From contig OZ024766.1 in the NCBI GenBank assembly GCA_964016885.1, forward strand, positions 12,958,001-13,022,000: a stretch of 64,000 bases of DNA. The letters are read 5' to 3'. The notes under the pieces were generated by a model. That model did not search any database, was not told the DNA's origin, and worked only from the letters and a program-made list of their open reading frames with translations. The position numbers were made by a program, and so were the translations under genes. Source of the DNA: Eledone cirrhosa (taxonomy: Eukaryota). Each line of letters begins with the position of its first letter. The stretch's first letter is position 1. Positions 3,336 through 35,156 of this stretch are shown piece after piece.

Positions 3336-3957
3336 ATATATTTATAAGTATATATCTATATATGTGTGTGTGTGGTAGGAAGTATGGTAAGGAACGAGGT
3401 GGACCATAACGCACCAGATCACGCGATACTTTGGTTAGTAGATATATATATATATGTGAGTGTGTGTTAAGCTATTCTATTAAATCTACTCCAGGATATC
3501 ACTGGTACTATATTTTATCAACCCCTGAATTATGAAATCATTTCATTTTACGTCCCCTTTTCCCTGCTTGCAAGAGTGGGACAGGAACTGATTCTGGCTT
3601 GATTTCTACAGCTTGATGCCCTTCCTAAAACCAACCTCATTTACAGTGAGTGCTGGGTGATTTTTTGCCGTGGCACCTCTACGACCACTTTACAGTGGAA
3701 TGATAGGGACTCCAGTCCCTATCATCTCATTTCTACAGCTGAGTAAACTGGAGCAATTTGAAATAAAGTGTCTTGCTCAAGGAAACAACACATTAACCGG
3801 TCGGAGAATTGAACTCACAACCTTTCGATAAAGAATAATACAATTATAGAGATTATAAAAGATTATAAAAGAATAATACGTATTATTCCTTTCGAATACA
3901 ATAAAAGGCCTGCTGTTACAACTTTGGTATTTATTGAGGATATTGTGACTCGTTTAA

Positions 3958-4178
3958 CCCTTTAGCATTTAAACCGGCCATATCCGGCCAGAAATCTCTC
4001 ACTTTTTTCTGTTCAAACCGGCTGTAACTAGCCACTCATACTGACGTTAAGGTATTCTTCTCAAAATAAATAATATCAAAATCTCATAGATTCAATATTA
4101 TGTGAGATAACTATATAAGATAAAGTGTTTACTGTGAAACTACAATAGTAAATATAGAATAATGTAAGTGCTAAAGGG
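3958..4178. mobile_element. 221-bp piggyBac-type MITE (also starting at 9489, 14412, 19424, 24458, 29882)
   Basis: TTAA|CCCTTTAGCA...TGCTAAAGGG|TTAA: terminal inverted repeats with a TTAA target duplication. Confidence 0.85.
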
Positions 4179-4516
4179 TTAAATAACTTAAATTTACAAC
4201 TTCAAGGTAAAACACAGCTCGTAAATGAAATGTATAACCATATTGTTGTCTTTGAAAAAAAGCTACAGTTGTGGGAACATCAACTTTGAAATAAAAATTA
4301 TGTGCATTTTCCATCATTTCAAGGAGGGAAATCACAGGATTCAGAGGTATTTGTGAATATAATTCAAGATTTGAGAAATGAATAGTATAGTCGACACTCG
4401 AGATTAAATTTTAGCTTGTGTAATTTTCCATAATTATTCTTTTATGGCGTTCGTCCGGCCCGTGGAGGCAAAGAAGTTGGCAATCCCTGATCTACACCAA
4501 TGTTTTCCTGTTACAG

Positions 4517-4654
4517 TGTGCAGTAGTGGAAGACTTGGTGCCAACTGTGATCAGGTGTGTCATTGTGAAGATAACAACAGGTGGAATGTGGAATTAGGGA
4601 TCTGTTCAAGGGGTAGATGTGCTCCAGGTTATGAAAGAAACAGTTGTCAGAAAG
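4517..4654 (+). CDS. EGF-like (laminin/MEGF-type) exon, copy 1; carries C->W and G->R changes
   Basis: Acceptor ttttcctgttacAG and donor AG|GTTAGT; 138 nt, phase 1-1; encodes (V)CSSGRLGANCDQVCHCEDNNRWNVELGICSRGRCAPGYERNSCQK. Confidence 0.85.
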
Positions 4655-7171
4655 GTTAGTTATTTTCATATCTCAGCTTTTATCTCTCACCAGTCCAGGT
4701 ACTTTATTTTATCAACCCCAGTACATTACTGGTACTTTATTTTATTAACCCCAGTACATTACTGGTAGTTTACTTTATCAACCCCAGTTCGTTACTGGTA
4801 CTTTACTTTATCAACCCCAGTACGTTACTGGTACTTTACTTTATCAACCCCAGTACGTTACTGGTACTTTACTTTATCAACCCCAGTACGTTACTGGTAC
4901 TTTACTTTATCAACCCTGTTAGGATGAAAGCCAGAGCTATAACTTCAGTAGGATTTGAACCCAGTTACGGCCCTTTACGTTCTGAGTTCAAATCCCATCA
5001 AGGTAAGCTTTGCCCTTCATCCTAACTGGGTTGATAAAATAAAGTACCAGTAACACACTGGGGTCAATCAACACCCCTTCCCCAAATGTGTTGGCCTTGC
5101 ATCTAAATCAGAAACCATTAAAATAATCTCTAAATTTCTAGTCAACAATCAATATTATTAGTTAGTAATATTAGTTAATAATTGTTTCTACGTTAGGCAC
5201 AAGGCCAGCAATTACCCCAGTGTATTACTGCTACTTTATTTTATCGACCCCGTAAGGATGAAAGGCAAAGTTAACCTCGGTGGGATTTGAAATCAGAATG
5301 GCAAGGGCCGTAACTCTATGCATCAAAGCATGGCGTCCCACCCTCCACTGATACTGCCAATCCACTGCCATTAATGTTATTATTGACTAATAATATTAAC
5401 TAATTATATTAATTAATAATATTAACTAATTATATTGACTAATAATATTAACTAATAATATTAACTAATAATATTAACTAATTATATTAACTAATAACAT
5501 TAACTAATAATATTAACTAATTATATTAACTAATAATATTAACTAATTATATTAACTAATAATATTAACTAATAATATTAACTAATTATATTAACTAATA
5601 ATATTAACTAATAATATTAACTAATTATATTAACTAATAATATTAACTAATTATATTAACTAATAATATTAACTAATAATATTTACTAATTATATTGACT
5701 AAGGGCCGTAACTCTATGCATCAAAGCATGGCGTCCGACGCTCCACCGATACTGCCAATCCACCGAATAATATTAACTAATTCAAATCCCGCCGAGGTTA
5801 ACTTTGCCCTTCATCCTTACGGGGTTGATAAAATAAAGTACCAGTAATACACTGGGGTAATTGCTGGCCTTGTGCCTAATGTAAAAATTATTTAAATTAT
5901 TAGTGAATATTATTAGTTGATAATATTAGTTAATATTATTAGTTAATATAATTAGTGAATGTTATTAGTTAATATTATTAGGTGAGAATATTAGTTAATA
6001 TTATTAGTAATATAATTAGTCAATATAATTAGTTAATATTATTAGTCAATATAATTAGTTAATGAGGTTAACTTTGCCTTTCATCCTTACGGGGTCGATA
6101 AAATAAAGTACCAGTAATGTACTGGGTAATTGCTGGCCTTGTGGCTAATGTAGAAATAATTATTAGTTCATATAATTAGTTACTATTATTAGTAAATATA
6201 ATTAGTCAATATAATTAGTCAATATAATTAGTCAATATAATTAGTCAATATAATTAGTCAATATAATTAGTCAATATAATTAGTCAATATTATTAGTCAA
6301 TATTATTAGTAAATATAATTAGTCAATATAATTAGTCAATATAATTAGTCAATATAATTAGTCAATATTATTAGTAAATATAATTAGTCAATATTATTAG
6401 TAAATATAATTAGTCAATATAATTAGTCAATATAATTAGTCAATATAATTAGTCAATATAATTAGTCAATATTATTAGTCAATATTATTAGTAAATATAA
6501 TTAGTCAATATTATTAGTAAATATAATTAGTCAATATAATTAGTCAATATAATTAGTCAATATAATTAGTCAATATAATTAGTCAATATAATAAGTCAAT
6601 ATTATTAGTCAATATTATTAGTAAATATAATTAGTCAATATTATTAGTCAATATTATTAGTAAATATAATTAGTCAATATAATTAGTCAATATAATTAGT
6701 CAATATTATTAGTCAATATTATTAGTAAATATAATTAGTCAATATAATTAGGCAATATTATTAGTCAATATTATTCGTAAATATAATTAGTCAATATAAT
6801 TAGAAACAATTATATTTTATCAACCCCAGAATGTTGGTTGTGTGGGGTTTTTTATTTCTGTATGAAGTTCAGGCAGTCAGCCATACAGACACATGATATG
6901 AGTGTGCAACATTGTAGCTATGTTTCTGTCAGTTGAAAGCAAGTCTTTGTATTAACTTTTGAGAAAGTCACACCCAGTTAAATTACATGACCTTAGGTAA
7001 GTGTATGGGAGAGACAGGAGCAGAGATAGAGAGAGATAGAGAGAGAGAGAGGGGGTGAGAGAAAGAGAGGGATATCGAGAGAGGGAGATAGAGGGAGAGA
7101 AAGAGATGTGAGAGACAGAGATAGAAAGTAAAATGTAGTAGTAATTCTAATGTTGTATTATATATATTTAT

Positions 7172-7216
<45 letters not shown>

Positions 7217-7485
7217 GAGGTTATATTTAATTTGTTGGGATTCAATAAGCTTAAAAATGTTTATAACTGATATAAAGCACTCAACAGTTTGCCTTGGTTG
7301 CCCTTGAAATATGTATAATAAAATAAATATGGTTTTATAAATATAGTTTCCATTTATTAATATATTATTTATATATATATATATATAAATATATAATAAG
7401 GTTCCTATTACCCACTCTACTACCTCAAGTATTGAGTACTTTGGTGCGTTATGGTCCACCTGGTTCCTTACCACATTTCCTTCGT

Positions 7486-7540
<55 letters not shown>

Positions 7541-7663
7541 AGGAAAAGAGTCAGGACCCCAACTGCTGATCTCTGGCCGGAGCTCAGCTGTTGGGTTCCT
7601 GGCTCTTTTCCTATTACCCACTCTTCTACCCTAAGTATTGAGTACTCTGAGATATATATATAT

Positions 7664-7697
<34 letters not shown>

Positions 7698-8268
7698 GTA
7701 TATCTATATATCCAAAATTAAAATTAAGGGTTGTCATGTCTGAGAGACATGCACCATGCGTAGAATAAGCTGAAAGATTAGATCCGAGCATTACATATCA
7801 ACTAGAAATAGATTGACATATATATATATATATATAATAAATACATGAAACAATCACAGGGAATAATTTGTAAAGAATGTAGGCACACATAGCTAGGTAG
7901 GTAACTAATTAAAGCTTGACTAGAACTTCAAATATAGATACCTTTTAAAATGATTAATCTCCTTTGTATATATTTCTTTAAGTAAGAAATATATTTCACC
8001 TATTAATCCGTAAATCACAGCAGTTAAATTCTTGGATGTTCACCAAATGAGAAGAAAAATAACCATCTGCGTTTACACAGCAAATGCAAATCTGCGAATG
8101 ATTTGAACCACTTGTTGCATTTTTTTAAAAATACACTCGTTGAACAACGTCATCCCAGTGGCCTGAATAGGACCATCGACAGCCAGAAATAGCCAGAAAT
8201 ATAAATATAAATATATATATATGTATATATAATATAAGATCAAAAGATGGTTAAAGGAGTTCCATGTA

Positions 8269-8335
8269 TTTTATTATGCGCATTTCAAAAACAAACATCA
8301 TCATGCAATAATATTTGTGTTTTCATCAGATAAAA
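8269..8335 (-). ncRNA. Type I hammerhead ribozyme, copy 2
   Basis: Same sequence as 2739-2805. Confidence 0.85.
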
Positions 8336-10048
8336 CAGGAGAACATGATATGAAGGCTAAAAAAACACTTGTGGATAGTGCAGTTTTAAATACGCATAAT
8401 AAAATACATGGAACTCCTTTAACCATCTTTTGATCTTATATTATGTATACTCCAGTCCTACAAACTGTAGAGTGCTTCTTATCCGATATCTGCATTGCTT
8501 TATTGTACTACAATAAAACTCACCACCTACATTATATGTATATATATATATATATTCTCTTTTACTCTTTTAACGTGTTCCAGCGATCCAGTTGAGGCCA
8601 TGCTGGGGCATGCCCTTGTTACACATTCTTTCTCCAACCTGTGTTGGTTGGCCATTTGGCAAAGAGGGGGTTCGTTGTTGCTGCCCTTAGGTTACCTTCG
8701 AACCATGCTGTGGGCTCATCCAGGATCCTGGTAACAGGGTGTCGAGATGTTCCTTGAAAACATCCACGTCCACACCATGCAGATCTCTCAAATTCCTTGG
8801 CGGCTTGTTGAAGAGGTGAGGGCCCTTGAACCCCAGGTTATTGTAATACCTGCTCCTTATTCTGTATATATTTATAAGTATATATCTATATATGTGTGTG
8901 TGTGTGGTAGGAAGTATGGTAAGGAACGAGGTGGACCATAACGCACCAGATCACGCGATACTTTGGTTAGTAGATATATATATATATGTGAGTGTGTGTT
9001 AAGCTATTCTATTAAATCTACTCCAGGATATCACTGGTACTATATTTTATCAACCCCTGAATTATGAAATCATTTCATTTTACGTCCCCTTTTCCCTGCT
9101 TGCAAGAGTGGGACAGGAACTGATTCTGGCTTGATTTCTACAGCTTGATGCCCTTCCTAAAACCAACCTCATTTACAGTGAGTGCTGGGTGATTTTTTGC
9201 CGTGGCACCGCTACGACCACTTTACAGTGGAATGATAGGGACTCCAGTCCCTATCATCTCATTTCTACAGCTGAGTAAACTGGAGCAATTTGAAATAAAG
9301 TGTTTGCTCAAGGAAACAACACGTTAACCGGTCGGAGAATTGAACTCACAACCTTTCGATAAAGAATAATACAATTATAGAGATTATAAAAGATTATAAA
9401 AGAATAATACGTATTATTCCTTTCGAATACAATAAAAGGCCTGCTGTTACAACTTTGGTATTTATTGAGGATATTGTGACTCGTTTAACCCTTTAGCATT
9501 TAAACCGGCCATATCCGGCCAGAAATCTCTCACTTTTTTCTGTTCAAACCGGCTGTAACTAGCCACTCATACTGACGTTAAGGTATTCTTCTCAAAATAA
9601 ATAATATCAAAATCTCATAGATTCAATATTATGTGAGATAACTATATAAGATAAAGTGTTTACTGTGACATTACAATAGTAAATATAGAGTAATGTAAGT
9701 GCTAAAGGGTTAAATAACTTAAATTTACAACTTCAAGGTAAAACTCAGCTCGTAAATGAAATGTATAACCATATTGTTGCCTTTGAAAAAAAGCTACAGT
9801 TGTGGGAACATCAACTTTGAAATAAAAATTATGTGCATTTTCCATCATTTCAAGGAGGGAAATCACAGGATTCAGAGGTATTTGTGAATATAATTCAAGA
9901 TTTGAGAAATGAATAGTATAGTCAACACTCGAGATAAAAATTTTAGCTTGTGTAATTTTCCATAATTATTCTTTTATGGCGTTCGTCCGGCCCGTGGAGG
10001 CAAAGAAGTTGGCAATCCCTGATCTACACCAATGTTTTCCTGTTACAG

Positions 10049-10186
10049 TGTGCAGTAGTAGAAGACTTGGTGCCAACTGTGATCAGGTGTGTCATTGTGA
10101 AGATAACAACAGGTGTAATGTGGAATTAGGGATCTGTTCAAGGGGTAGATGTGCTCCAGGTTATGAAGGAAACAGTTGTCAGAAAG
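10049..10186 (+). CDS. EGF-like exon, copy 2 (G->R)
   Basis: Same splice sites, 138 nt; CSSRRLGANCDQVCHCEDNNRCNVELGICSRGRCAPGYEGNSCQK. Confidence 0.87.
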
Positions 10187-10229
10187 GTTAGTTATTTTCA
10201 TATCTCAGCTTTTATCTCTCACCAGTCCA

Positions 10230-11076
10230 GGTACTTTATTTTATCAACCCCAGTACATTACTGGTACTTTATTTTATCAATCCCAGTACATTACTGGTAC
10301 TTTATTTTGTCAACCCCAGTACGTTACTGGTACTTTACTTTATCAACCCCAGTACGTTACTGGTACTTTATTTTATCAACCCCAATACATTACTGGTACT
10401 TTACTTTATCAACCCCAGTACATTCCTGGTACTTTACTTTATCAACCCCAGTACGTTACTAGTACTTTATTTTATCAACTCCAGTACATTACTGGTACTT
10501 TATTTTATCAACCCCAGTACGTTACTGGTACTTTACTTTATCAACCCCAGTACGTTACTGATACTTTACTTTATCAAATCCAGTACATTACTGGTACTTT
10601 ACTTTATCAACTCCAGTACATTACTGGTACTTTACTTTATCAACCCAAGAACGTTACAGGTACTTTACCTTATCAACCCCAGTACATTACTGGTACTTTA
10701 CTTTATCAACCCCAGTACATTACTGGTACCTTACTTTATCAACCCCCCGTACATTACTGGTACTTTACTTTATCAACCCCAGTACGTTACTGGTACTTTA
10801 CTTTATCAACCCCAGTACGTTACTGATACTTTACTTTATCAAACCCAGTACATTACTGGTACTTTACTTTATCAACCCCAGTACATTACTGGTACTTTAC
10901 TTTATCAACCCAAGAACGTTACAGGTACTTTACTTTATCAACCCCAGTACATTACTGGTACTTTACTTTATCAACCCCAGTACATTACTGGTACCTTACT
11001 TTATCAACCCAAGAACGTTACAGGTACTTTACTTCATCAACCCCAGTACGTTACTGGTACTTTACTTTATCAACCC
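10230..11076. repeat. 33-bp SINE-derived VNTR downstream of each EGF exon (also ~4698-4917, 15151-15900, 20163-20946, 25198-25746, 30621-30841)
   Basis: Unit CAACCCCAGTAC(A/G)TTACTGGTACTTTACTTTAT is the reverse complement of the SINE segment ataaaataaagtaccagtaatacactgggg; ~6 to ~25 copies per locus. Confidence 0.92.
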
Positions 11077-12221
11077 TGTTAGGATGAAAGCCAGAGCTAT
11101 AACTTTAGTAGGATTTGAACCCAGTTACGGCCCTTTACGTTCTGAGTTCAAATCCCATCAAGGTAAGCTTTGCCTTTCATCCTTACTGGGTTGATAAAAT
11201 AAAGTACCAGTAACACACTGGGGTCAATCAACACCCCTTCCCCAAATGTGTTGGCCTTGCATCTAAATCAGAAACCATTAAAATAATCTCTAAATTTCTA
11301 GTCAACAATCAATATTATTAGTTAGAAATATTAGTTAATAATTGTTTCTACGTTAGGCACAAGGCCAGCAATTACCCCAGTGTATTACTGCTACTTTATT
11401 TTATCGACCCCGTAAGGATGAAAGGCAAAGTTAACCTCGGTGGGATTTGAACTCAGAATGGCAAGGGCCGTAACTCTATGCATCAAAGCATGGCGTCCGA
11501 CCCTCCACTGATACTGCCAATCCACTGCCATTAATATTATTATTGACTAATAATATTAACTAATAATATTAACTAATATATAATTAGACAATATAATTAG
11601 TCAATATTATTAGCCAATACTATTAGTAAATATAATAAGTCAATATAATAAGTCAATATAATTAGTCAATATAATTAGTCAATATAATTAGTCAATATAA
11701 TTAGTCAATATAATTAGTCAATATTATTACTCAATATAATTAGCCAATATAATTAGTCAATATAATTAGTCAATATTATTACTCAATATTATTAGTAAAT
11801 ATAATTAGTCAATATAATTAGAAACAATTATATTTTATCAACCCCAGAATGTTGGTTGTGTGGGTTTTTTATTTCTGTATGAAGTTCAGACAGTCAGCCA
11901 TACAGACACATGATATGAGTGTGCAACATCGTAGCTATGTTTCTGTCAGTTGAAAGCAAGTCTTTGTATTAACTTTTAGAGAAAGTCACACCCAGTTAAA
12001 TTACATGACCTTAGGTAAGTGTATGGGAGAGACAGGAGGAGAGATAGAGAGAGACAGAGAGAGAGAGAAAGAGAGGGATATCGAGAGAGGGAGATAGAGG
12101 GAGAGAAAGAGATGTGTGAGAGACAGAGAGAGAGGGAGAGAGAGAAAGTGGGAAGAATGGAGACTAAAAGTGGAAGAGGCAGAGAGATAGAAAGTAAAAT
12201 GTAGTAGTAATTCTAATGTTG

Positions 12222-12270
<49 letters not shown>

Positions 12271-12409
12271 GAGGTTATATTTAATTTGTTGGGATTCAAT
12301 AAGCTTAAAAATGTTTATAACTGATATAAAGCACTCAACAGTTTGCCTTGGTTGCCTTGAAATATGTATAATAAAATAAATATGGTTTTATAAATATAGT
12401 TTCCATTTA

Positions 12410-12446
<37 letters not shown>

Positions 12447-12569
12447 AGGAAAAGAGTCAGGACCCCAACTGCTGATCTCTGGCCAGAGCTCAGCTGTTGG
12501 GTTCCTGGCTCTTTTCCTATTACCCACTCTTCTACCCTAAGTATTGAGTACTCTGAGATATATATATAT

Positions 12570-12621
<52 letters not shown>

Positions 12622-13178
12622 CCCAAATTAAAATTAAGGGTTGTCATGTCTGAGAGACATGCACCATGCGTAGAATAAGCTGAAAGATTAGATCCGAGCA
12701 TTACATATCAACTAGAAATAGATTGACATATATATATATATATATAATAAATACATGAAACAATCACAGGGAATAATTTGTAAAGAATGTAGGCACACAT
12801 AGCTAGGTAGGTAACTAATTAAAGCTTGACTAGAACTTCAAATATAGATACCTTTTAAAATGATTAATCTCCTTTGTATATATTTCTTTAAGTAAGAAAT
12901 ATATTTCACCTATTAATCCGTAAATCACAGCAGTTAAATTCTTGGATGTTCACCAAATGAGAAGAAAAATAACCATCTGCGTTTACACAGCAAATGCAAA
13001 TCTGCGAATGATTTGAACCACTTGTTGCATTTTTTTAAAAATACACTCGTTGAACAACGTCATCCCAGTGGCCTGAATAGGACCATCGACAGCCAGAAAT
13101 AGCCAGAAATATAAATATAAATATATATATATGTATATATAATATAAGATCAAAAGATGGTTAAAGGAGTTCCATGTA

Positions 13179-13245
13179 TTTTATTATGCGCATTTCAAAA
13201 ACAAACATCATCATGCAATAATATTTGTGTTTTCATCAGATAAAA
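13179..13245 (-). ncRNA. Type I hammerhead ribozyme, copy 3
   Basis: Same sequence as 2739-2805. Confidence 0.85.
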
Positions 13246-14971
13246 CAGGAGAACATGATATGAAGGCTAAAAAAACACTTGTGGATAGTGCAGTTTTAAA
13301 TGCGCATAATAAAATACATGGAACTCCTTTAACCATCTTTTGATCTTATATTATGTATACTCCAGTCCTACAAACTGTAGAGTGCTTCTTATCCGATATC
13401 TGCATTGCTTTATTGTACTACAATAAAACTCACCTCCTACATTATATGTATATATATATATATATATATATTCTCTTTTACTCTTTTAACGTGTTCCAGC
13501 GATCCAGTTGAGGCCATGCTGGGGCATGCCCTTGTTACACATTCTTTCTCCAACCTGTGTTGGTTGGCCATTTGGCAAAGAGGGGGTTCGTTGTTGCTGC
13601 CCTTAGGTTACCTTCGAACCATGCTGTGGGCTCATCCAGGATCCTGGTAACAGGGTGTCGAGATGTTCCTTGAAAACATCCACGTCCACACCATGCAGAT
13701 CTCTCAAATTCCTTGGCAGCTTGTTGAAGAGGTGAGGGCCCTTGAACCCCAGGTTATTGTAATACCTGCTCCTTATTCTGTATATATTTATAAGTATATA
13801 TCTATATATGTGTGTGTGTGTGTGTGTGGTAGGAAGTATGGTAAGGAACGAGGTGGACCATAACGCACCAGATCACGCGATACTTTGTTTAGTAGATATA
13901 TATATATATGTGAGTGTGTGTTAAGCTATTCTATTAAATCTACCCCAGGATATCACTGGTACTATATTTTATCAACCCCTGAATTATGAAATCATTTCAT
14001 TTTACGTCCCCTTTTCCCTGCTTGCAAGAGTGGGACAGGAACTGATTCTGGCTTGATTTCTACAGCTTGATGCCCTTCCTAAAACCAACCTCATTTACAG
14101 TGAGTGCTGGGTGATTTTTTGCCGTGGCACCTCTACGACCACTTTACAGTGGAATGATAGGGACCCCAGTCCCTATCATCTCATTTTTACAGCTGAGTAA
14201 ACTGGAGCAATTTGAAATAAAGTGTCTTGCTCAAGGAAACAACACATTACCCGGTCTGAGAATTGAACTCACAACCTTTCGATAAAGAATAATACAATTA
14301 TAGAGATTATAAAAGATTATAAAAGAATAATACATATTATTCCTTTCGAATACAATAAAAGGCCTGCTGTTACAACTTTGGTATTTATTGAGGATATTGT
14401 GACTCGTTTAACCCTTTAGCATTTAAACCGGCCATATCCGGCCAGAAATCTCTCACTTTTTTCTGTTCAAACCGGCTGTAACTAGCCACTCATACTGACG
14501 TTAAGGTATTCTTCTCAAAATAAATATTATCAAAATCTCATAGATTCAATATTATGTGAGATAACTATATAAGATAAAGTGTTTACTGTGACATTACAAT
14601 AGTAAATATAGAGTCATGTAAGTGCTAAAGGGTTAAATAACTTAAATTTACAACTTCAAGGTAAAACTCAGCTCGTAAATGAAATGTATAACCATATTGT
14701 TGCCTTTGAAAAAAAGCTACAGTTGTGGGAACATCAACTTTGAAATAAAAATTATGTGCATTTTCCATCATTTCAAGGAGGGAAATCACAGGATTCAGAG
14801 GTATTTGTGAATATAATTCAAGATTTGAGAAATGAATAGTATAGTCGACACTCGAGATAAAAATTTTAGCTTGTGTAATTTTCCATAATTATTCTTTTAT
14901 GGCGTTCGTCCGGCCCATGGAGGCAAAGAAGTTGGCAATCCCTGATCTACACCAATGTTTTCCTGTTACAG

Positions 14972-15109
14972 TGTGCAGTAGTGGAAGACTTGATGCCAAC
15001 TGTGATCAGGTGTGTCATTGTGAAGATAACAGCAGGTGTAATGTGGAATTAGGGATCTGTTCAAGGGGTAGATGTGCTCCAGGTTATGAAGGAAACAGTT
15101 GTCAGAAAG
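14972..15109 (+). CDS. EGF-like exon, copy 3 (G->D, N->S)
   Basis: Same splice sites, 138 nt; CSSGRLDANCDQVCHCEDNSRCNVELGICSRGRCAPGYEGNSCQK. Confidence 0.87.
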
Positions 15110-18098: not shown

Positions 18099-18156
<58 letters not shown>

Positions 18157-18455: not shown

Positions 18456-18486
<31 letters not shown>

Positions 18487-19982
18487 CTCTTTTACTCTTT
18501 TAACGTGTTCCAGCGATCCAGTTGAGGCCATGCTGGGGCATGCCCTTGTTACACATTCTTTCTCCAACCTGTGTTGGTTGGCCATTCGGCAAAGAGGGGG
18601 TTCGTTGTTGCTGCCCTTAGGTTACCTTCGAACCATGCTGTGGGCTCATCCAGGATCCTGGTAACAGGGTGTCGAGATGTTCCTTGAAAACATCCACGTC
18701 CACACCATGCAGATCTCTCAAATTCCTTGGCAGCTTGTTGAAGAGGTGAGGGCCCTTGAACCCCAGGTTATTGTAATACCTGCTCCTTATTCTGTATATA
18801 TTTATAAGTATATATCTATATATGTGTGTGTGTGTGTGTGGTAGGAAGTATGGTAAGGAACGAGGTGGACCATAACGCACCAGATCACGCGATACTTTGG
18901 TTAGTAGATATATATATATATGTGAGTGTGTGTTAAGCTATTCTATTAAATCTACCCCAGGATATCACTGGTACTATATTTTATCAACCCCTGAATTATG
19001 AAATCATTTCATTTTACGTCCCCTTTTCCCTGCTTGCAAGAGTGGGACAGGAACTGATTCTGGCTTGATTTCTACAGCTTGATGCCCTTCCTAAAACCAA
19101 CCTCATTTACAGTGAGTGCTGGGTGATTTTTTGCCGTGGCACCTCTACGACCACTTTACAGTGGAATGATAGGGACTCCAGTCCCTATCATCTCATTTCT
19201 ACAGCTGAGTAAACTGGAGCAATTTGAAATAAAGTGTCTTGCTCAAGGAAACAACACATTACCCGGTCTGAGAATTGAACTCACAACCTTTCGATAAAGA
19301 ATAATACAATTATAGAGATTATAAAAGATTATAAAAGAATAATACGTATTATTCCTTTCGAATACAATAAAAGGCCTGCTGTTACAACTTTGGTATTTAT
19401 TGAGGATATTGTGAATCGTTTAACCCTTTAGCATTTAAACCGGCCATATCCGGCCAGAAATCTCTCACTTTTTTCTGTTCAAACCGGCTGTAACTAGCCA
19501 CTCATACTGACGTTAAGGTATTCTTCTCAAAATAAATAATATCAAAATCTCATAGATTCAATATTATGTGAGATAACTATATAAGATAAAGTGTTTACTG
19601 TGACATTACAATAGTAAATATAGAGTAATGTAAGTGCTAAAGGGTTAAATAACTTAAATTTACAACTTCAAGGTAAAACTCAGCTCGTAAATGAAATGTA
19701 TAACCATATTGTTGCCTTTGAAAAAAAGCTACAGTTGTGGGAACATCAACTTTGAAATAAAAATTATGTGCATTTTCCATCATTTCAAGGAGGGAAATCA
19801 CAGGATTCAGAGGTATTTGTGAATATAATTCAAGATTTGAGAAATGAATAGTATAGTCGACACTCGAGATTAAATTTTAGCTTGTGTAATTTTCCATAAT
19901 TATTCTTTTATGGCGTTCGTCCGGCCCATGGAGGCAAAGAAGTTGGCAATCCCTGATCTACACCAATGTTTTCCTGTTACAG

Positions 19983-20120
19983 TGTGCAGTAGTGGAAGAC
20001 TTGGTGCCAACTGTGATCAGGTGTGTCATTGTGAAGATAACAACAGGTGTAATGTGGAATTAGGGATCTGTTCAAGGGGTAGATGTGCTCCAGTTTATGA
20101 AGGAAACAGTTGTCAGAAAG
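19983..20120 (+). CDS. EGF-like exon, copy 4 (G->V)
   Basis: Same splice sites, 138 nt; ends ...RCAPVYEGNSCQK. Confidence 0.87.
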
Positions 20121-23100: not shown

Positions 23101-23121
23101 TCCATTTATTAATATATTATT

Positions 23122-23190
<69 letters not shown>

Positions 23191-23489
23191 AGGAAAAGAG
23201 TCAGGACCCCAACTGCTGATCTCTGGCCGGAGCTCAGCCGTTCGGTTCCTGGCTCTTTAAGTAAGAAATATATTTCACCTATTAATCCATAAATCACAGC
23301 AGTTAAATTCTTGGATGTTCACCAAATGAGAAGAAAAATAACCATCTGCGTTTACACAGCAAATGCAAATCTGCGAATGATTTGAACCACTTGTTGCATT
23401 TTTTTAAAAATACACTCGTTGAACAACGTCATCCCAGTGGCCTGAATAGGACCATCGACAGCCAGAAATAGCCAGAAATATAAATATAA

Positions 23490-23520
<31 letters not shown>

Positions 23521-25017
23521 CTCTTTTACTCTTTTAACGTGTTCCAGCGATCCAGTTGAGGCCATGCTGGGGCATGCCCTTGTTACACATTCTTTCTCCA
23601 ACCTGTGTTGGTTGGCCATTCGGCAAAGAGGGGGTTCGTTGTTGCTGCCCTTAGGTTACCTTCGAACCATGCTGTGGGCTCATCCAGGATCCTGGTAACA
23701 GGGTGTCGAGATGTTCCTTGAAAACATCCACGTCCACACCATGCAGATCTCTCAAATTCCTTGGCAGCTTGTTGAAGAGGTGAGGGCCCTTGAACCCCAG
23801 GTTATTGTAATACCTGCTCCTTATTCTGTATATATTTATAAGTATATATCTATATATGTGTGTGTGTGTGTGTGGTAGGAAGTATGGTAAGGAACGAGGT
23901 GGACCATAACGCACCAGATCACGCGATACTTTGGTTAGTAGATATATATATATATGTGAGTGTGTGTTAAGCTATTCTATTAAATCTACTCCAGGATATC
24001 ACTGGTACTATATTTTATCAACCCCTGAATTATGAAATCATTTAATTTTACGTCCCCTTTTCCCTGCTTGCAAGAGTGGGACAGGAACTGATTCTGGCTT
24101 GATTTCTACAGCTTGATGCCCTTCCTAAAACCAACCTCATTTACAGTGAGTGCTGGGTGATTTTTTGCCGTGGCACCTCTACGACCACTTTACAGTGGAA
24201 TGATAGGGACTCCAGTCCCTATCATCTCATTTCTACAGCTGAGTAAACTGGAGCAATTTGAAATAAAGTGTCTTGCTCAAGGAAACAACACATTACCCGG
24301 TCTGAGAATTGAACTCACAACCTTTCGATAAAGAATAATACAATTATAGAGATTATAAAAGATTATAAAAGAATAATACGTATTATTCCTTTCGAATACA
24401 ATAAAAGGCCTGCTGTTACAACTTTGGTATTTATTGAGGATATTGTGACTCGTTTAACCCTTTAGCATTTAAACCGGCCATATCCGGCCAGAAATCTCTC
24501 ACTTTTTTCTGTTCAAACCGGCTGTAACTAGCCACTCATACTGACGTTAAGGTATTCTTCTCAAAATAAATATTATCAAAATCTCATAGATTCAATATTA
24601 TGTGAGATAACTATATAAGATAAAGTGTTTACTGTGACATTACAATAGTAAATATAGAGTAATGTAAGTGCTAAAGGGTTAAATAACTTAAATTTACAAC
24701 TTCAAGGTAAAACTCAGCTCGTAAATGAAATGTATAACCATATTGTTGCCTTTGAAAAAAAGCTACAGTTGTGGGAACATCAACTTTGAAATAAAAATTA
24801 TGTGCATTTTCCATCATTTCAAGGAGGGAAATCACAGGATTCAGAGGTATTTGTGAATATAATTCAAGATTTGAGAAATGAATAGTATAGTCGACACTCG
24901 AGATAAAAATTTTAGCTTGTGTAATTTTCCATAATTATTCTTTTATGGCGTTCGTCCGGCCCGTGGAGGCAAAGAAGTTGGCAATCCCTGATCTACACCA
25001 ATGTTTTCCTGTTACAG

Positions 25018-25155
25018 TGTGCAGTAGTGGAAGACTTGGTGCCAACTGTGATCAGGTGTGTCATTGTGAAGATAACAACAGGTGTAATGTGGAATTAGGG
25101 ATCTGTTCAAGGGGTAGATGTGCTCCAGGTTATGAAGGAAACAGTTGTCAGAAAG
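25018..25155 (+). CDS. EGF-like exon, copy 5 (consensus)
   Basis: Same splice sites, 138 nt; all 8 cysteines intact. Confidence 0.88.
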
Positions 25156-27696
25156 GTTAGTTGTTTTCAGATCTCAGCTTTTATCTCTCACCAGTCCAGG
25201 TACTTTATTTTATCAACCCAAGTACATTACTGGTACTTTATTTTATCAATCCCAGTACATTACTGGTACTTTATTTTGTCAACCCCAGTACTTTACTGGT
25301 ACTTTACTTTATCAACCCCAGTACGTTACTGGTACTTTACTTTATCAACCCCAGTACATTACTGGTACTTTACTTTATCAACCCCGTACATTACTGGTAC
25401 TTTACTTTATCAACCCCAGTACGTTACTGGTACTTTACTTTATCAACCCCCGTACATTACTGGTACTTTACTTTATCAACCCCAGTACGTTACTGGTACT
25501 TTACTTTATCAACCCCCGTACATTACTGCTACTTTACTTTATCAACCCCAGTACGTTACTGGTACTTCACCTTATCAACCCCAGTACGTTACTGATACTT
25601 TACTTTATCAAACCCAGTACATTACTGGTACTTTACTTTATCAACCCCAGTACATTACTGGTACCTTACTTTATCAACCCAAGAACGTTACAGGTACTTT
25701 ACTTTATCAACCCCAGTACGTTACTGGTACTTTACTTTATCAACCCTGTTAGGATGAAAGCCAGAGCTATAACTTCAGTAGGATTTGAACCCAGTTACGG
25801 CCCTTTACGTTCTGAGTTCAAATCCCATCAAGGTAAGCTTTGCCTTTCATCCTTACTGGGTTGATAAAATAAAGTACCAGTAACACACTGGGGTCAATCA
25901 ACACCCCTTCCCCAAATGTGTTGGCCTTGCATCTCAATCAGAAACCATTAAATAATCTCTAAATTTCTAGTCAACAATCAATATTATTAGTTAGTAATAT
26001 TAGTTAATAATTGTTTCTACGTTAGGCACAAGGCCAGCAATTACCCCAGTGAATTACTGCTACTTTATTTTATCGACCCCGTAAGGATGAAAGGCAAAGT
26101 TAACCTCGGTGGGATTTGAACTCAGAATGGCAAGGGCCGTAACTCTATGCATCAAAGCATGGCGTCCGACCCTCCACTGATACTGCCAATCCACTGCCAT
26201 TAATATTATTATTGACTAATAATATTAACTAATAATATTAACTAATTATATTGACTAATAATATTAACTAATAATATTAACTAAATAATATTAACTAATA
26301 ATATTAACTAATAATATTAACTAATAATATTAACTAATTATATTAACTAATAATATTAACTAATTATATTAACTAATAATATTAACTAATAATATTTACT
26401 AATTATATAACTCTATGCATCAAAGCATGGCGTCCGACGCTCCACCGATACTGACAATCCACCGAATAATATTAACTAATTCAAATCCCGCCGAGGTTAA
26501 CTTTGCCTTTCATCCTTACGGGGTTGATAAAATAAAGTACCAGTAATACACTGGGGTAATTGCTGGCCTTGTGCCTAATGTAAAAATTATTTAAATTATT
26601 AGTGAATATTATTAGTTGATAATATTAGTTAATATTATTAGTTAATATAATTAGTGAATGTTATTAGTTAATATTATTAGGTGCTAATATTAGTTAATAT
26701 TATTAGTTAATACAATTATTCAATATAATTAGTTAATGAGGTTAACTTTGCCTTTCATCCTTACGGGGTCGATAAAATAAAGTACCAGTAATGTACTGGG
26801 TAATTGCTGGCCTTGTGCCTAACGTAGAAACAATTATTAGTTCATATAATTAGTTACTATTATTAGTAAATATAATTAGTCAATATAATTAGTAAATATA
26901 ATTAGTAAATATAATTAGTCAATATAATTAGTCAATATAATTAGTAAATATAATTAGTCAATATAATTCGTCAATATTATTAGTCAATATTATTAGTAAA
27001 TATTATTAGTAAATATAATTAGTCAATATAATTAGTCAATATAATTAGTCAATATAATTTGTCAATATTATTAGTCAATACTATTAGTAAATATAATTAG
27101 TCAATATAATAAGTCAATATAATTAGTCAATATAATTAGTCAATATAATTAGTCAATATAATTAGTCAATATAATTAGTCAATATTATTACTCAATATAA
27201 TTAGTCAATATAATTAGTCAATATAATTAGTCAATATTATTACTCAATATTATTAGTAAATATAATTAGTCAATATAATTAGAAACAATTATATTTTATC
27301 AACCCCAGAATGTTGGTTGTGTGGGTTTTTTATTTCTGTATGAAGTTCAGACAGTCAGCCATACAGACACATGATATGAGTGTGCAACATCGTAGCTATG
27401 TTTCTGTCAGTTGAAAGCAAGTCTTTGTATTAACTTTTAGAGAAAGTCACACCCAGTTAAATTACATGACCTTAGGTAAGTGTATGGGAGAGACAGGAGG
27501 AGAGATAGAGAGAGAGGGGGCGATAGAGACAGAGAGAGAGAGAAAGAGAGGGATATCGAGAGAGGGAGATAGAGGGAGAGAAAGAGATGTGAGAGAGACA
27601 GAGAGAGAGGGAGAGAGAGAAAGTGGGAAGAATGGAGACTAAAAGTGGAAGAGGCAGAGAGATAGAAAGTAAAATGTAGTAGTAATTCTAATGTTG

Positions 27697-27727
<31 letters not shown>

Positions 27728-27868
27728 CAGAGGTTATATTTAATTTGTTGGGATTCAATAAGCTTAAAAATGTTTATAACTGATATAAAGCACTCAACAG
27801 TTTGCCTTGTTTGCCTTGAAATATGTATAATAAAAAAAATATGGTTTTATAAATATAGTTTCCATTTA

Positions 27869-27917
<49 letters not shown>

Positions 27918-28046
27918 ATGTATAGGAAAAGAGTCAGGACCCCAACTGCTGATCTCTGGTCAGAGCTCAGCTGTTGGGTTCCTGGCTCTTTTCCTATTAC
28001 CCACTCTTCTACCCTAAGTATTGAGTACTCTGGGATATATATATAT

Positions 28047-28098
<52 letters not shown>

Positions 28099-28655
28099 CC
28101 CAAATTAAAATTAAGGGTTGTCATGTCTGAGAGACATGCACCATGCGTAGAATAAGCTGAAAGATTAGATCCGAGCATTACATATCAACTAGAAATATAT
28201 TGACATATATATATATATATATAATAAATACATGAAACAATCACAGGGAATAATTTGTAAAGAATGTAGACACACATAGCTAGGTAGGTAACTAATTAAA
28301 GCTTGACTAGAACTTCAAATATAGATACCTTTTAAAATGATTAATCTCCTTTGTATATATTTCTTTAAGTAAGAAATATATTTCACCTATTAATCCGTAA
28401 ATCACAGCAGTTAAATTCTTGGATGTTCACCAAATGAGAAGAAAAATAACGATCTGCGTTTACACAGCAAATGCAAATCTGCGAATGATTTGAACCACGT
28501 GTTGCATTTTTTTTAAAATACACTCGTTGAACAAGGTCATCCCAGTGGCCTGAATAGGACCATCGACAGCCAGAAATAGCCAGAAATATAAATATAAATA
28601 TATATATATGTATATATAATATAAGATCAAAAGATGGTTAAAGGAGTTCCATGTA

Positions 28656-28722
28656 TTTTATTATGCGCATTTCAAAAACAAACATCATCATGCAATAATA
28701 TTTGTGTTTTCATCAGATAAAA
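28656..28722 (-). ncRNA. Type I hammerhead ribozyme, copy 4
   Basis: Same sequence as 2739-2805. Confidence 0.85.
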
Positions 28723-30440
28723 CAGGAGAACATGATATGAAGGCTAAAAAAACACTTGTGGATAGTGCAGTTTTAAATGCGCATAATAAAATACATGGAA
28801 CTCCTTTAACCATCTTTTGATCTTATATTATGTATACTCCAGTCCTACAAACTGTAGAGTGCTTCTTATCCGATATCTGCATTGCTTTATTGTACTACAA
28901 TAAAACTCACCTCCTACATTATATGTATATATATATATATATATTCTCTTTTACTCTTTTAACGTGTTCCAGCGATCCAGTTGAGGCCATGCTGGGGCAT
29001 GCCCTTGTTACACATTCTTTCTCCAACCTGTGTTGGTTGGCCATTTGGCAAAGAGGGGGTTCATTGTTGCTGCCCTTAGGTTACCTTCGAACCATGCTGT
29101 GGGCTCATCCAGGATCCTGATAACAGGGTGTCGAGATGTTCCTTGAAAACATCCACGTCCACACCGTGCAGATCTCTCAAATTCCTTGGCAGCTTGTTGA
29201 CGAGGTGAGGGCCCTTGAACCCCAGGTTATTGTAATACCTGCTCCTTATTCTGTATATATTTATAAGTATATATCTATATATGTGTGTGTGTGTGTGTGG
29301 TAGGAAGTATGGTAAGGAACGAGGTGGACCATAACGCACCAGATCACGCGATACTTTGGTTAGTAGATATATATATATATGTGAGTGTGTGTTAAGCTAT
29401 TCTATTAAATCTACCCCAGGATATCACTGGTACTATATTTTATCAACCCCTGAATTATGAAACATTTCATTTTACGTCCCCTTTTCCCTGCTTTCAAGAG
29501 TGGGACAGGAACTGATTCTGGCTTGATTTCTACAGCTTGATGCCCTTCCTAAAACCAACCTCATTTACAGTGAGTGCTGGGTGATTTTTTGCCGTGGCAC
29601 CTCTACGACCACTTTACAGTGGAATGATAGGGACCCCAGTCCCTATCATCTCATTTTTACAGCTGAGTAAACTGGAGCAATTTGAAATAAAGTGTCTTGC
29701 TCAAGGAAACAACACATTACCCGGTCTGAGAATTGAACTCACAACCTTTCGATAAAGAATAATACAATTATAGAGATTATAAAAGATTATAAAAGAATAA
29801 TACATATTATTCCTTTCGAATACAATAAAAGGCCTGCTTTTACAACTTTGGTATTTATTGAGGATATTGTGACTCGTTTAACCCTTTAGCATTTAAACCG
29901 GCCATATCCGGCCAGAAATCTCTCACTTTTTTCTGTTCAAACCGGCTGTAACTAGCCACTCATACTGACGTTAAGGTATTCTTCTCAAAATAAATAATAT
30001 CAAAATCTCATAGATTCAATATTATGTGAGATAACTATATAAGATAAAGTGTTTACTGTGACATTACAATAGTAAATATAGAGTAATGTAAGTGCTAAAG
30101 GGTTAAATAACTTAAATTTACAACTTCAAGGTAAAACTCAGCTCGTAAATGAAATGTATAACCATATTGTTGCCTTTGAAAAAAAGCTACAGTTGTGGGA
30201 ACATCAACTTTGAAATAAAAATTATGTGCATTTTCCATCATTTCAAGGAGGGAAATCACAGGATTCAGAGGTATTTGTGAATATAATTCAAGATTTGAGA
30301 AATGAATAGTATAGTCAACACTCGAGATTAAATTTTAGCTTGTGTAATTTTCCATAATTATTCTTTTATGGCGTTCGTCCGGCCCGTGGAGGCAAAGAAG
30401 TTGCCAATCCCTGATCTACACCAATGTTTTCCTGTTACAG

Positions 30441-30578
30441 TGTGCAGTAGTGGAAGACTTGGTGCCAACTGTGATCAGGTGTGTCATTGTGAAGATAACA
30501 ACAGGTGTAATGTGGAATTAGGGATCTGTTCAAGGGGTAGATGTGCTCCAGGTTATGAAGGAAACAGTTGTCAGAAAG
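30441..30578 (+). CDS. EGF-like exon, copy 6 (consensus)
   Basis: Same splice sites, 138 nt; all 8 cysteines intact. Confidence 0.88.
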
Positions 30579-32626
30579 GTTAGTTATTTTCATATCTCAG
30601 CTTTTATCTCTCACCAGTCCAGGTACTTTAATTTATCAACCCCAGTACGTTACTGGTACTTTACTTTATCAACCCCAGTACGTTACTGATACTTTACTTT
30701 ATCAAACCCAGTACATTACTGGTACTTTACTTTAACAACCCCAGTACATTACTGGTACCTTACTTTATCAACCCAAGAACGTTACAGGTACTTTACTTCA
30801 TCAACCCCAGTACGTTACTGGTACTTTACTTTATCAACCCTGTTAGGATGAAAGCCAGAGCTATAACTTCAGTAGGATTTGAACCCAGTTACGGCCCTTT
30901 ACGTTCTGAGTTCAAATCCCATCAAGGTAAGTTTTGCCTTTCATCCTTACTGGGTTGATAAAATAAAGTACCAGTAACACACTGGGGTCAATCAACACCC
31001 CTTCCCCAAATGTGTTGGCCTTGCATCTAAATCAGAAACCATTAAAATAATCTCTAAATTTCTAGTCAACAATCAATATTATTAGTTAGAAATATTAGTT
31101 AATAATTGTTTCTACGTTAGGCACAAGGCCAGCAATTACCCCAGTGTATTACTGCTACTTTATTTTATCGACCCCGTAAGGATGAAAGGCAAAGTTAACC
31201 TCGGTGGGATTTGAACTCAGAATGGCAAGGGCCGTAACTCTATGCATCAAAGCATGGCGTCCGACCCTCCACTGATACTGCCAATCCACTGCCATTAATA
31301 TTATTATTGACTAATAATATTAACTAATAATATTAACTAATTATATTAACTAATAATATTAACTAATTATATTGACTAATAATATTAACTAATAATATTA
31401 ACTAAATAATATTAACTAAATAATATTAACTAATAATATTAACTAATAATATTAACTAATTATATTAACTAATAATATTAACTAATTATATTAACTAATA
31501 ATATTAACTAATAATATTTACTAATTATATAACTCTATGCATCAAAGCATGGCGTCCGACGCTCCACCGATACTGCCAATCCACCGAATAATATTAACTA
31601 ATTCAAATCCCGCCGAGGTTAACTTTGCCTTTCATCCTTACGGGGTTGATAAAATAAAGTACCAGTAATACACTGGGGTAATTGCTGGCCTTGTGCCTAA
31701 TGTAAAAATTATTTAAATTATTAGTGAATATTATTAGTTGATAATATTAGTTAATATTATTAGTTAATATAATTAGTGAATGTTATTAGTTAATATTATT
31801 AGGTGATAATATTAGTTAATATTATTAGTTAATATAATTAGTCAATATAATTAGTTAATGAGGTTAACTTTGCCTTTCATCCTTACGGGGTCGATAAAAT
31901 AAAGTACCAGTAATGTACTGGGTAATTGCTGGCCTTGTGCCTAACGTAGAAACAATTATTAGTTCATATAATTAGTTACTATTATTAGTAAATATAATTA
32001 GTCAATATAATTAGTCAATATAATTAGTCAATATAATTAGTCAATATAATTAGTCAATATTATTAGTCAATACTATTAGTAAATATAATTAGTCAATATA
32101 ATAAGTCAATATAATTAGTCAATATTATTACTCAATATAATTAGTCAATATAATTAGTCAATATAATTAGTCAATATTATTACTCAATATTATTAGTAAA
32201 TATAATTAGTCAATATAATTAGAAACAATTATATTTTATCAACCCCAGAATGTTGGTTGTGTGGGTTTTTTATTTCTGTATGAAGTTCAGACAGTCAGCC
32301 ATACAGACACATGATATGAGTGTGCAACATCGTAGCTATGTTTCTGTCAGTTGAAAGCAAGTCTTTGTATTAACTTTTAGAGAAAGTCACACCCAGTTAA
32401 ATTACATGACCTTAGGTAAGTGTATGGGAGAGACAGGAGGAGAGATAGAGAGAGAGGGGGCGATAGAGACAGAGAGAGAGAGAAAGAGAGGGATATCGAG
32501 AGAGGGAGATAGAGGGAGAGAAAGATGTGAGAGAGAGAGGGAGAGAGAGAAAGTGGGAAGAATGGAGACTAAAAGTGGAAGAGGCAGAGAGATAGAAAGT
32601 AAAATGTAGTAGTAATTCTAATGTTG

Positions 32627-32671
<45 letters not shown>

Positions 32672-32814
32672 GAGGTTATATTTAATTTGTTGGGATTCAA
32701 TAAGCTTAAAAATGTTTATAACTGATATAAAGCACTCAACAGTTTGCCTTGGTTGCCTTGAAATATGTATAATAAAATAAATATGGTTTTATAAATATAG
32801 TTTCCATTTATTAA

Positions 32815-32851
<37 letters not shown>

Positions 32852-32974
32852 AGGAAAAGAGTCAGGACCCCAACTGCTGATCTCTGGCCAGAGCTCAGCT
32901 GTTGGGTTCCTGGCTCTTTTCCTATTACCCACTCTTCTACCCTAAGTATTGAGTACTCTGAGATATATATATAT

Positions 32975-33025
<51 letters not shown>

Positions 33026-33583
33026 TCCCAAATTAAAATTAAGGGTTGTCATGTCTGAGAGACATGCACCATGCGTAGAATAAGCTGAAAGATTAGATCC
33101 GAGCATTACATATCAACTAGAAATAGATTGACATATATATATATATATATAATAAATACATGAAACAATCACAGGGAATAATTTGTAAAGAATGTAGGCA
33201 CACATAGCTAGGTAGGTAACTAATTAAAGCTTGACTAGAACTTCAAATATAGATACCTTTTAAAATGATTAATCTCCTTTGTATATATTTCTTTAAGTAA
33301 GAAATATATTTCACCTATTAATCCGTAAATCACAGCAGTTAAATTCTTGGATGTTCACCAAATGAGAAGAAAAATAACCATCTGCGTTTACACAGCAAAT
33401 GCAAATCTGCGAATGATTTGAACCACTTGTTGCATTTTTTTAAAAATACACTCGTTGAACAACGTCATCCCAGTGGCCTGAATAGGACCATCGACAGCCA
33501 GAAATAGCCAGAAATATAAATATAAATATATATATATGTATATATAATATAAGATCAAAAGATGGTTAAAGGAGTTCCATGTA

Positions 33584-33650
33584 TTTTATTATGCGCATTT
33601 CAAAAACAAACATCATCATGCAATAATATTTGTGTTTTCATCAGATAAAA
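33584..33650 (-). ncRNA. Type I hammerhead ribozyme, copy 5
   Basis: Same sequence as 2739-2805. Confidence 0.85.
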
Positions 33651-34539
33651 CAGGAGAACATGATATGAAGGCTAAAAAAACACTTGTGGATAGTGCAGTT
33701 TTAAATGCGCATAATAAAATACATGGAACTCCTTTAACCATCTTTTGATCTTATATTATGTATACTCCAGTCCTACAAACTGTAGAGTGCTTCTTATCCG
33801 ATATCTGCATTGCTTTATTGTACTACAATAAAACTCACCTCCTACATTATATGTATATATATATATATATATATATTCTCTTTTACTCTTTTAACGTGTT
33901 CCAGCGATCCAGTTGAGGCCATGCTGGGGCATGCCCTTGTTACACATTCTTTCTCCAACCTGTGTTGGTTGGCCATTTGGCAAAGAGGGGGTTCGTTGTT
34001 GCTGCCCTTAGGTTACCTTCGAACCATGCTGTGGGCTCATCCAGGATCCTGATAACAGGGTGTCGAGATGTTCCTTGAAAACATCCACGTCCACACCATG
34101 CAGATCTCTCAAATTCCTTGGCAGCTTGTTGAAGAGGTGAGGGCCCTTGAACCCCAGGTTATTGTAATACCTGCTCCTTATTCTGTATATATTTATAAGT
34201 ATATATCTATATATGTGTGTGTGTGTGTGTTGTAGGAAGTATGGTAAGGAACGAGGTGGACCATAACGCACCAGATCACGCGATACTTTGGTTAGTAGAT
34301 ATATATATATATGTGAGTGTGTGTTAAGCTATTCTATTAAATCTACCCCAGGATATCACTGGTACTATATTTTATCAACCCCTGAATTATGAAATCATTT
34401 CATTTTACGTCCCCTTTTCCCTGCTTGCAAGAGTGGGACAGGAACTGATTCTGGCTTGATTTCTACAGCTTGATGCCCTTCCTAAAACCAACCTCATTTA
34501 CAGTGAGTGCTGGGTGATTTTTTGCCGTGGCACCTCTAC

Positions 34540-34727
34540 GACCACTTTACAGTGGAATGATAGGGACCCCAGTCCCTATCATCCCATTTCTACAGCTGAG
34601 TAAACTGGAGCAATTTGAAATAAAGTGTCTTGCTCAAGGAAACAACACATTACCCGGTCTGAGAATTGAACTCACAACCTTTCGATTGCAAGGCCAATGT
34701 TCTAACCACTAAGCCATGTGCCTCCAC
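34540..34727 (-). mobile_element. tRNA/CORE-like SINE, intact only in the last unit
   Basis: tgtcttgctcaaggaaacaacac...gaattgaactcacaacctttcgattgcaaggcc...taaccactaagccatgtgcctccac has reverse-strand B- and A-box-like motifs; a related copy lies at ~60430-60560. Confidence 0.75.
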
Positions 34728-34932
34728 ATATATATACTGTATATATACAGTATATATATATATATATATATATACAGTATATATATATATATATATATAT
34801 ATACAGTATATATATATATATATATATATACAGTATATATATATATATATATATATATACTGTATATATATATAAATATATACTGTATATATATATACTG
34901 TATATATATATATACTGTATATATATACCGTA

Positions 34933-34981
<49 letters not shown>

Positions 34982-35124: not shown

Positions 35125-35156
<32 letters not shown>

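Follow-up and report, generated by a model that had tools for sequence, protein, structure and literature searches.

The first 34.7 kb of a 64,000-nt stretch of the Eledone cirrhosa genome (assembly GCA_964016885.1, contig OZ024766.1, positions 12,958,001 to 13,022,000 of the forward strand; hereafter the window) is occupied by a tandem array in which each multi-kilobase unit carries one EGF-like exon. We assign a probability of roughly 0.55 to the interpretation that this array is an exon-bearing macrosatellite, likely grown by unequal crossing-over from a gene of the mollusc MEGF family, whose exon is likely spliced and whose copies drift without visible constraint at the protein level. The array is therefore likely to be a drifting repeat rather than a finely kept multi-EGF receptor. 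It offers a snapshot of domain-repeat growth under way, with a single kind of junction, introns that still match and an exon that is likely still spliced.

Comparison of the window with itself, together with a junction motif, reveals six full head-to-tail units of 4.9 to 5.5 kb and the tail of a seventh, for a total of at least 6.7 copies within the window. A preliminary description of this DNA, prepared from its letters alone, had placed six units of ~5 kb at 3830 to 34686. The junction motif bears out this layout, but the count was too low, since positions 1 to 3829 form the tail of another unit (1–618 is 96% identical to 4992–5609, and 1963–3829 is 98.7% identical to 7493–9360). The array thus extends past the left edge of the window, and the seventh exon would be expected ~340 to 470 nt beyond that edge. 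Exonic sequence accounts for 2.7% of the array, whereas 37% consists of simple or tandem repeats. The units and their recurring parts are as follows.

1–3829, forward strand: partial seventh unit (tail).
3830–9360, forward strand: unit 1, 5531 nt, which carries 16 of the 37 private substitutions and diverges the most.
9361–14283, forward strand: unit 2, 4923 nt, in which the two 13-mer arrays are not separated by the spacer.
14284–19295, forward strand: unit 3, 5012 nt, with a loss of ~690 nt in common with unit 4.
19296–24329, forward strand: unit 4, 5034 nt, with the same ~690-nt loss as unit 3.
24330–29753, forward strand: unit 5, 5424 nt, delimited by the junction motif.
29754–34686, forward strand: unit 6, 4933 nt, the final unit of the array.
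4698–4916, forward strand: 33-mer minisatellite, one per unit, beginning 43 nt past the donor site.
5381–6803, strand not assigned: two opposed 13-mer A+T-rich minisatellite arrays with fragments of dispersed repeat between them, a set that recurs once in each unit.
3953–4182: 230-nt high-copy dispersed element, labeled by inference as resembling a miniature inverted-repeat transposable element, with an 89% identical inverted relative at 40067–40296.

The same description had called the introns nearly identical, and this holds for the sequence that can be aligned: identity between units is 98.6 to 99.5% over 2122 ungapped columns drawn from six anchor blocks common to all units, a count that omits the tandem repeats and the blocks missing from some units (~55% of a unit). 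It does not hold for intron structure, as the 33-mer is present in 6.6, 25.6, 22.6, 23.6, 16.6 and 6.6 copies in units 1 to 6, and the units differ in the ~690-nt loss and the unit 2 spacer noted above. Moreover, the variant patterns across units form a mosaic. Among 15 of the 16 intron variants shared between units, 51 of 105 pairs fail the four-gamete test, and the presence of all four combinations in these pairs fits repeated exchange between units. Intron identity and four-gamete failures together agree with the proposal that an exon-plus-intron amplification took place recently or has been homogenised. Multi-kilobase head-to-tail units, high homogeneity and signs of exchange are all traits of a macrosatellite. 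As a separate observation, 1–5700 (the end of the partial unit and the start of unit 1) has microsatellite and 33-mer tracts similar in length to those of 25822–31534 (the end of unit 5 and the start of unit 6), which hints at a five-unit higher-order step in the array. A search of Rfam returned no match.

A 138-nt exon lies in each of the six units, bounded by a GT donor and by a 25-nt acceptor that is the same throughout; its boundaries are symmetric (phase 1-1), and no stop codon interrupts it. The in-frame symmetry originally proposed is therefore present in all six copies.

4517–4654, forward strand: EGF-like exon copy 1, with C22W (a lost cysteine) and G40R.
10049–10186, forward strand: EGF-like exon copy 2, with G4R, a change found in 14 of 387 family modules.
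14972–15109, forward strand: EGF-like exon copy 3, with G7D (a near-invariant glycine) and N20S.
19983–20120, forward strand: EGF-like exon copy 4, with G37V (a near-invariant glycine).
25018–25155, forward strand: EGF-like exon copy 5, majority sequence.
30441–30578, forward strand: EGF-like exon copy 6, majority sequence.

The encoded 46-residue module is, judging from its sequence, of the common eight-cysteine, MEGF-type (laminin-like) EGF class. All eight cysteines stand at family spacing in five copies, the exception being copy 1, and the near-invariant glycines at positions 7, 27 and 37 are kept in the majority sequence but lost in copies 3 (G7D) and 4 (G37V). Every copy has leucine at position 6, where leucine occurs in 2 of 899 modules of the family and 885 have phenylalanine, tyrosine or tryptophan. 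The Pfam check suggested earlier yielded only EGF matches below threshold (the best, EGF_STAB1-2, at 22.9 bits vs a cut-off of 27), but a full HMMER search with the module recovered 219 proteins at E 0.001 or better. The analyses of related proteins given here rest on the best 150 of these matches, among which the modules of the closest relatives are ~50% identical to that of the window. In 30 scanned relatives the module is accompanied by galactose-binding, fibronectin, phosphatase, kinase, fibrinogen or seven-transmembrane domains. The 16 named proteins among 20 relatives looked up come from molluscs (including the MEGF-phosphatases of Octopus and cuttlefish), one amphioxus and one orthonectid. 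Atlas neighbours of the module are EGF_laminin/PEAR1L clusters at 0.90 to 0.92. The HMMER relatives, the module alignment and these neighbours all uphold the MEGF-like module type that had been proposed.

Other searches with the module were less productive. Its structure model is weak (predicted local distance difference test score, pLDDT, of 69), and with that model Foldseek gave 12 matches, none at E 0.001 (the top row was Tie2, E 1.2), while VIA-align gave no match at Z 2. A sequence search of the PDB returned no matches, and word-index protein searches produced no candidate among longer proteins or those of 24 to 79 residues, which is weak evidence.

The pattern of substitutions among the visible copies, read from the right end of the array, bears most directly on whether the exons are maintained as protein. 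Across the six units, 6 of 138 exon columns and 47 of 2122 intron columns vary. All six exon differences are private and change an amino acid (C22W, G40R, G4R, G7D, N20S and G37V), and at least six non-synonymous exon changes have P of about 1e-4 if omega is 0.3 and 0.03 if omega is 1. Furthermore, three of the six fall in the 11 near-invariant columns of the family, close to the 25% expected under no selection. A near-invariant residue is lost in each of copies 1, 3 and 4, and the exons therefore do not all look intact. As a control, we used sibling modules of at least 85% identity in 34 of the 150 related proteins, in which 0 of 243 distinct differences lie in near-invariant columns (Fisher P 8e-6). 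An alternative control that also counts breaks shared by siblings and alignment shifts gives 32 of 200 (P 0.06). The pattern argues against translation of the visible copies under constraint and leaves the case for a protein built from them weak. It runs counter to the idea that the copies build a constrained poly-EGF receptor. Private changes in the units comprise 37 substitutions vs two 1-nt indels, an excess that, given the error spectrum of long-read consensus, argues against consensus error. Separately, four of the six exon changes hit a G of a GG pair (three G>A and one G>T), too few for a pattern.

The exon is present in six public sequencing runs from three studies, and no RNA run is among the holders listed. 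Contigs from four of these runs (X1, X2, X5 and X6) were compared with 29385–30625. In X1, a 140-nt contig spans exactly 30439–30578 without difference, corresponding to copy 6 plus an AG that is common to the acceptor and to many exon ends. This contig ends at both splice sites, as expected when spliced molecules undergo word-based assembly, and on this basis we infer that X1 holds spliced RNA. The EGF-like exon is therefore likely still spliced, which agrees with the earlier suggestion that these exons are used. About 85% of the outgoing depth at the 3′ end of the exon in X1 does not run on into the intron, a weak figure obtained by arithmetic on contig depths. Among the 15 of 208 joints listed, no joint of the exon to the same exon was present.

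Run X2 behaves differently. A contig covering 30405–30619 is continuous across both splice sites, as expected of genomic DNA, and X2 may be the source sample. Its unit contigs have depths of 813 to 1049 vs 3 to 16 for the other five contigs listed, a ratio of about 50 to 350 that is rough, as contig depth is no copy number. This hints that the array, at ~50 to 350 copies, is much longer than the window shows or was collapsed in assembly. In X5 and X6 (organisms B and C), exon and intron sequence is found in few contigs (122 and 24, respectively), which are uninformative on the array. The right side of the junction (29763–29846) is without cover in X1, X5 and X6, to which we attach no weight.

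The origin of the array can be approached through its junctions. All six units begin with one identical join, in which a high-copy dispersed repeat is cut short and is followed by a 63-nt A+T-rich piece.

29730–29816, forward strand: unit junction, with the join between 29753 and 29754, spanned by a 146-nt X2 contig (29697–29842).
34687–34728, forward strand: uninterrupted end of the dispersed repeat, marking the original right breakpoint; in X2 and X5, the same continuation appears at 29753 as a loose end.
40844–40906, forward strand: exact match to the 63 nt that open unit 1, lying at the center of a 325-nt palindrome (40712–41037) located 6 kb beyond the end of the array.

Given one join common to all units and an intact repeat past unit 6, the simplest inference is a single break-and-join event followed by amplification. 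The 63-nt piece is not itself high-copy (its X2 depth is 837 vs millions for the neighboring sequence), and it is possible that it was a templated insertion at the junction, with 40844–40906 as the candidate template.

These features can be arranged in a proposed series of steps. One duplication inside a mollusc MEGF-family gene would have founded the array, the initial tandem pair having been produced by a single break-and-join event that may have included the 63-nt templated piece. Unequal exchange and conversion would then have multiplied and shuffled the units, possibly to tens or hundreds. Transcription through the array would allow the intact splice sites to be used, and the visible copies would either be skipped or be included in a message that yields no selected protein. 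In either case, damaging changes would persist.

Several points weigh against this interpretation. There are only six exon changes to judge, and the finding that all six are non-synonymous has P 0.23 under neutrality. The excess of variants in the exon relative to the intron falls short of significance when all variants are counted (P 0.13; P 0.02 for private variants only). Splice sites are intact in all six copies, and no copy is interrupted by a stop or a frameshift. A functional protein with many modules could tolerate very young private changes in one of them. The proteins used as controls are themselves gene models, whose arrays may in some cases be older. The window does not reach the left end of the array and shows no host gene, and introns beyond 29 kb are possible. 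X1 is not recorded as RNA, its RNA nature being deduced from contig ends. Finally, the majority exon in X1 and X2 is the intact sequence of copies 5 and 6, and the damaged copies may therefore be the decaying edge of a mostly intact array.

Some of these points lead to the foremost alternative, which we regard as possible but clearly less probable, wherein the array encodes a working stalk of variable copy number. A live MEGF gene, such as a mollusc receptor with galactose-binding, MEGF, membrane and phosphatase parts, would splice many or all copies serially, and the damaged copies at the end would be young or skipped. The exon-precise X1 contig and, weakly, the depth that bypasses the intron are consistent with such a gene, as is the retention of eight cysteines and the conserved glycines in the majority sequence. 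Near-identical MEGF arrays are also frequent among related proteins: 19 of the 105 relatives with at least four modules hold at least four that have a 90%-identical sibling, reaching 40 in an oyster protein, and the nearest named cephalopod relatives of the module are MEGF-phosphatase receptors. Reading through the EGF donor gives a glycine and then a stop in all six copies, such that a secreted end is formally possible and a working gene might yield a secreted form as well. Against these points stand the broken near-invariant residues in three of six copies vs none of the 243 control differences, the loss of the conserved aromatic residue at position 6 in all copies, and the failure to recognize any exon of such a gene in the 33 kb downstream, where 59.5 kb marks the beginning of an ankyrin gene on the same strand.

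The downstream evidence was gathered in several ways. No EGF, membrane or phosphatase exon was recognized in the 33 kb downstream of the array, although introns longer than 29 kb are possible. A family profile run over the six frames of the window found no further EGF module beyond the exons, and comparison of the 150 relatives plus seven phosphatase-type or short relatives with the window gave no real match outside them. None of 16 candidate phase-1 exons downstream holds a convincing membrane segment, by a filter that is not exhaustive (it missed the ankyrin exon at 59512). The membrane or intracellular exon that a receptor or adhesion ectodomain would need was thus not found, and this part of the preliminary description is not supported.

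An extreme form of the working gene, which we consider unlikely, is a live receptor gene with 50 to 300 interchangeable exons spread over 0.25 to 1.5 Mb. Such a gene would produce a stalk of thousands of residues or a variable number of exons per message, its length would be set by DNA copy number and splicing, and the mutated copies at the end would serve as a skipped reservoir. If there are indeed hundreds of copies and a live host gene, the array would exceed LPA KIV-2 and would provide a direct test of splicing over a very long run of identical exons.

Still less probable is the proposal that only a single parent copy supplies the spliced exon, either the first unit left of the window or a near-identical paralogue elsewhere, and that the array is a silent satellite detached from any gene. 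The contigs cannot tell which copy is spliced, the majority sequence is common to several copies, and no host-gene exon was found downstream in the window. However, a 303-nt X1 contig of the upstream intron carries variants present in units 3 and 5, as would fit transcripts or DNA of array-type copies, and the acceptors are unchanged in six copies.

We also considered whether the EGF exons might be upstream exons, untranslated or fused, of the ankyrin gene at 59.5 kb, and find this rather far-fetched. The gene is on the same strand, and the phase-1 acceptor of its first recognized exon, which is also the first coding exon recognized downstream, fits the EGF donor.

59512–59602, forward strand: ankyrin-repeat exon with a phase-1 acceptor and an open frame.
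60603–60750, forward strand: ankyrin-repeat exon in phase with 59512–59602.

However, a phase match has a one-in-three chance of occurring, the intron would be 28.9 kb, and a methionine two codons into the 59512 exon could start an ankyrin protein alone. The exon pair matches Pfam Ank at E 5e-9, but its three protein matches are only distant (38 to 40%) and include no EGF family. An extracellular module joined to ankyrins without a membrane segment would also be unlikely. It is scarcely credible that the array is an assembly artefact in which one locus was falsely multiplied, even with X2 possibly being the source sample, since the units are set apart by substitutions (some shared, others private), by deletions and by the lengths of their minisatellites, and the X2 contig bridges the junction at unit-like depth, with copy number collapsed, if anything, rather than inflated.

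The closest parallel to the array is human LPA KIV-2, with units of ~5550 bp whose exons are 98 to 100% identical and which also show small indels and a tandem repeat in the intron (PMC7613587). Both have a multi-kilobase exon-plus-intron tandem unit that is near-identical and frame-preserving. In KIV-2, by contrast, each unit contains two exons, about 40 length alleles exist and the protein product is known, whereas the window array has one exon per unit and damaging-looking changes in its copies, is known from sequence only, and has no recognized host gene. The D4Z4 macrosatellite, which is reported to range from 8 to over 100 copies (PMC13138017), is likewise a homogeneous multi-kilobase tandem unit with embedded coding sequence. 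However, each D4Z4 unit contains a whole reading frame (DUX4), whereas the unit in the window is one internal exon needing partners.

Recent internal amplification of MEGF modules is already common in molluscs. Near-identical arrays in bivalves, a chiton, gastropods and amphioxus (P0086, P0042, P0047, P0003 and P0001), compared at the protein level only, resemble the window array in their recent growth to as many as 40 copies. Unlike those in the window, their sibling differences never fall in the 11 near-invariant columns. The window array also shows that a series of in-frame exons need not equal a selected repeat protein, and this calls for caution with many annotated mollusc MEGF genes.

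The eight-cysteine module type is also shared with mollusc MEGF or galactose-binding receptor-like phosphatases, including SudRes1 of Biomphalaria sudanica and the cephalopod proteins P0015 and P0022. The genes of this receptor class are clustered and copy-variable, have lost EGF domains between alleles, and are tied to parasite resistance in snails (PMC12297450). The window modules are only ~50% identical to these, and galactose-binding, membrane and phosphatase exons were not found in the window, although a galactose-binding domain, which precedes the EGF modules in these receptors, would be expected to the left of it. Many relatives carry the database names MEGF6/10/11 or draper-like, which reflect the common module only. 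MEGF10, Draper and CED-1 are defined by an EMI domain, a membrane segment and an NPxY tail, and general scans of the window, none aimed at EMI or NPxY, gave no sign of these traits. On sequence grounds, the array appears linked to the receptor phosphatases and to MEGF10/Draper by module type alone and not by family membership. A literature search with little coverage of subscription papers turned up neither this locus nor a comparable array in any cephalopod.

The remaining DNA downstream of the array holds several features of minor note. A 585-codon open frame on the reverse strand at 61760–63517 has a Helitron helicase-like N domain (E 8e-32) and apparently lies in an intron of the ankyrin gene. 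Fragments of reverse transcriptase of the long interspersed nuclear element type are located at 56539–57609 (reverse strand, Pfam RVT_1) and at 37730–38580 (forward strand, with stops, labeled by eye). A 58-nt exon-like piece at 43150–43207 (forward strand) has good splice signals and one open frame; it was considered and rejected because that frame does not fit phase 1, and it may belong to the ankyrin gene as an untranslated exon. Eight long fold-back palindromes were found (34778–36001, 35697–37010, 40712–41037, 42659–43092, 45136–45898, 50732–50900, 53832–53959 and 56121–56252), several of which are bordered by TA repeats and could be template-switch products or assembly effects. A long TGG/GTA triplet tract and minisatellites of 40, 21 and 77 nt occupy 48251–50587, 51071–51835, 54292–55581 and 59739–60304, and the 21-mer minisatellite can be read on either strand as a long, uninterrupted heptad frame, which is likely a chance effect.

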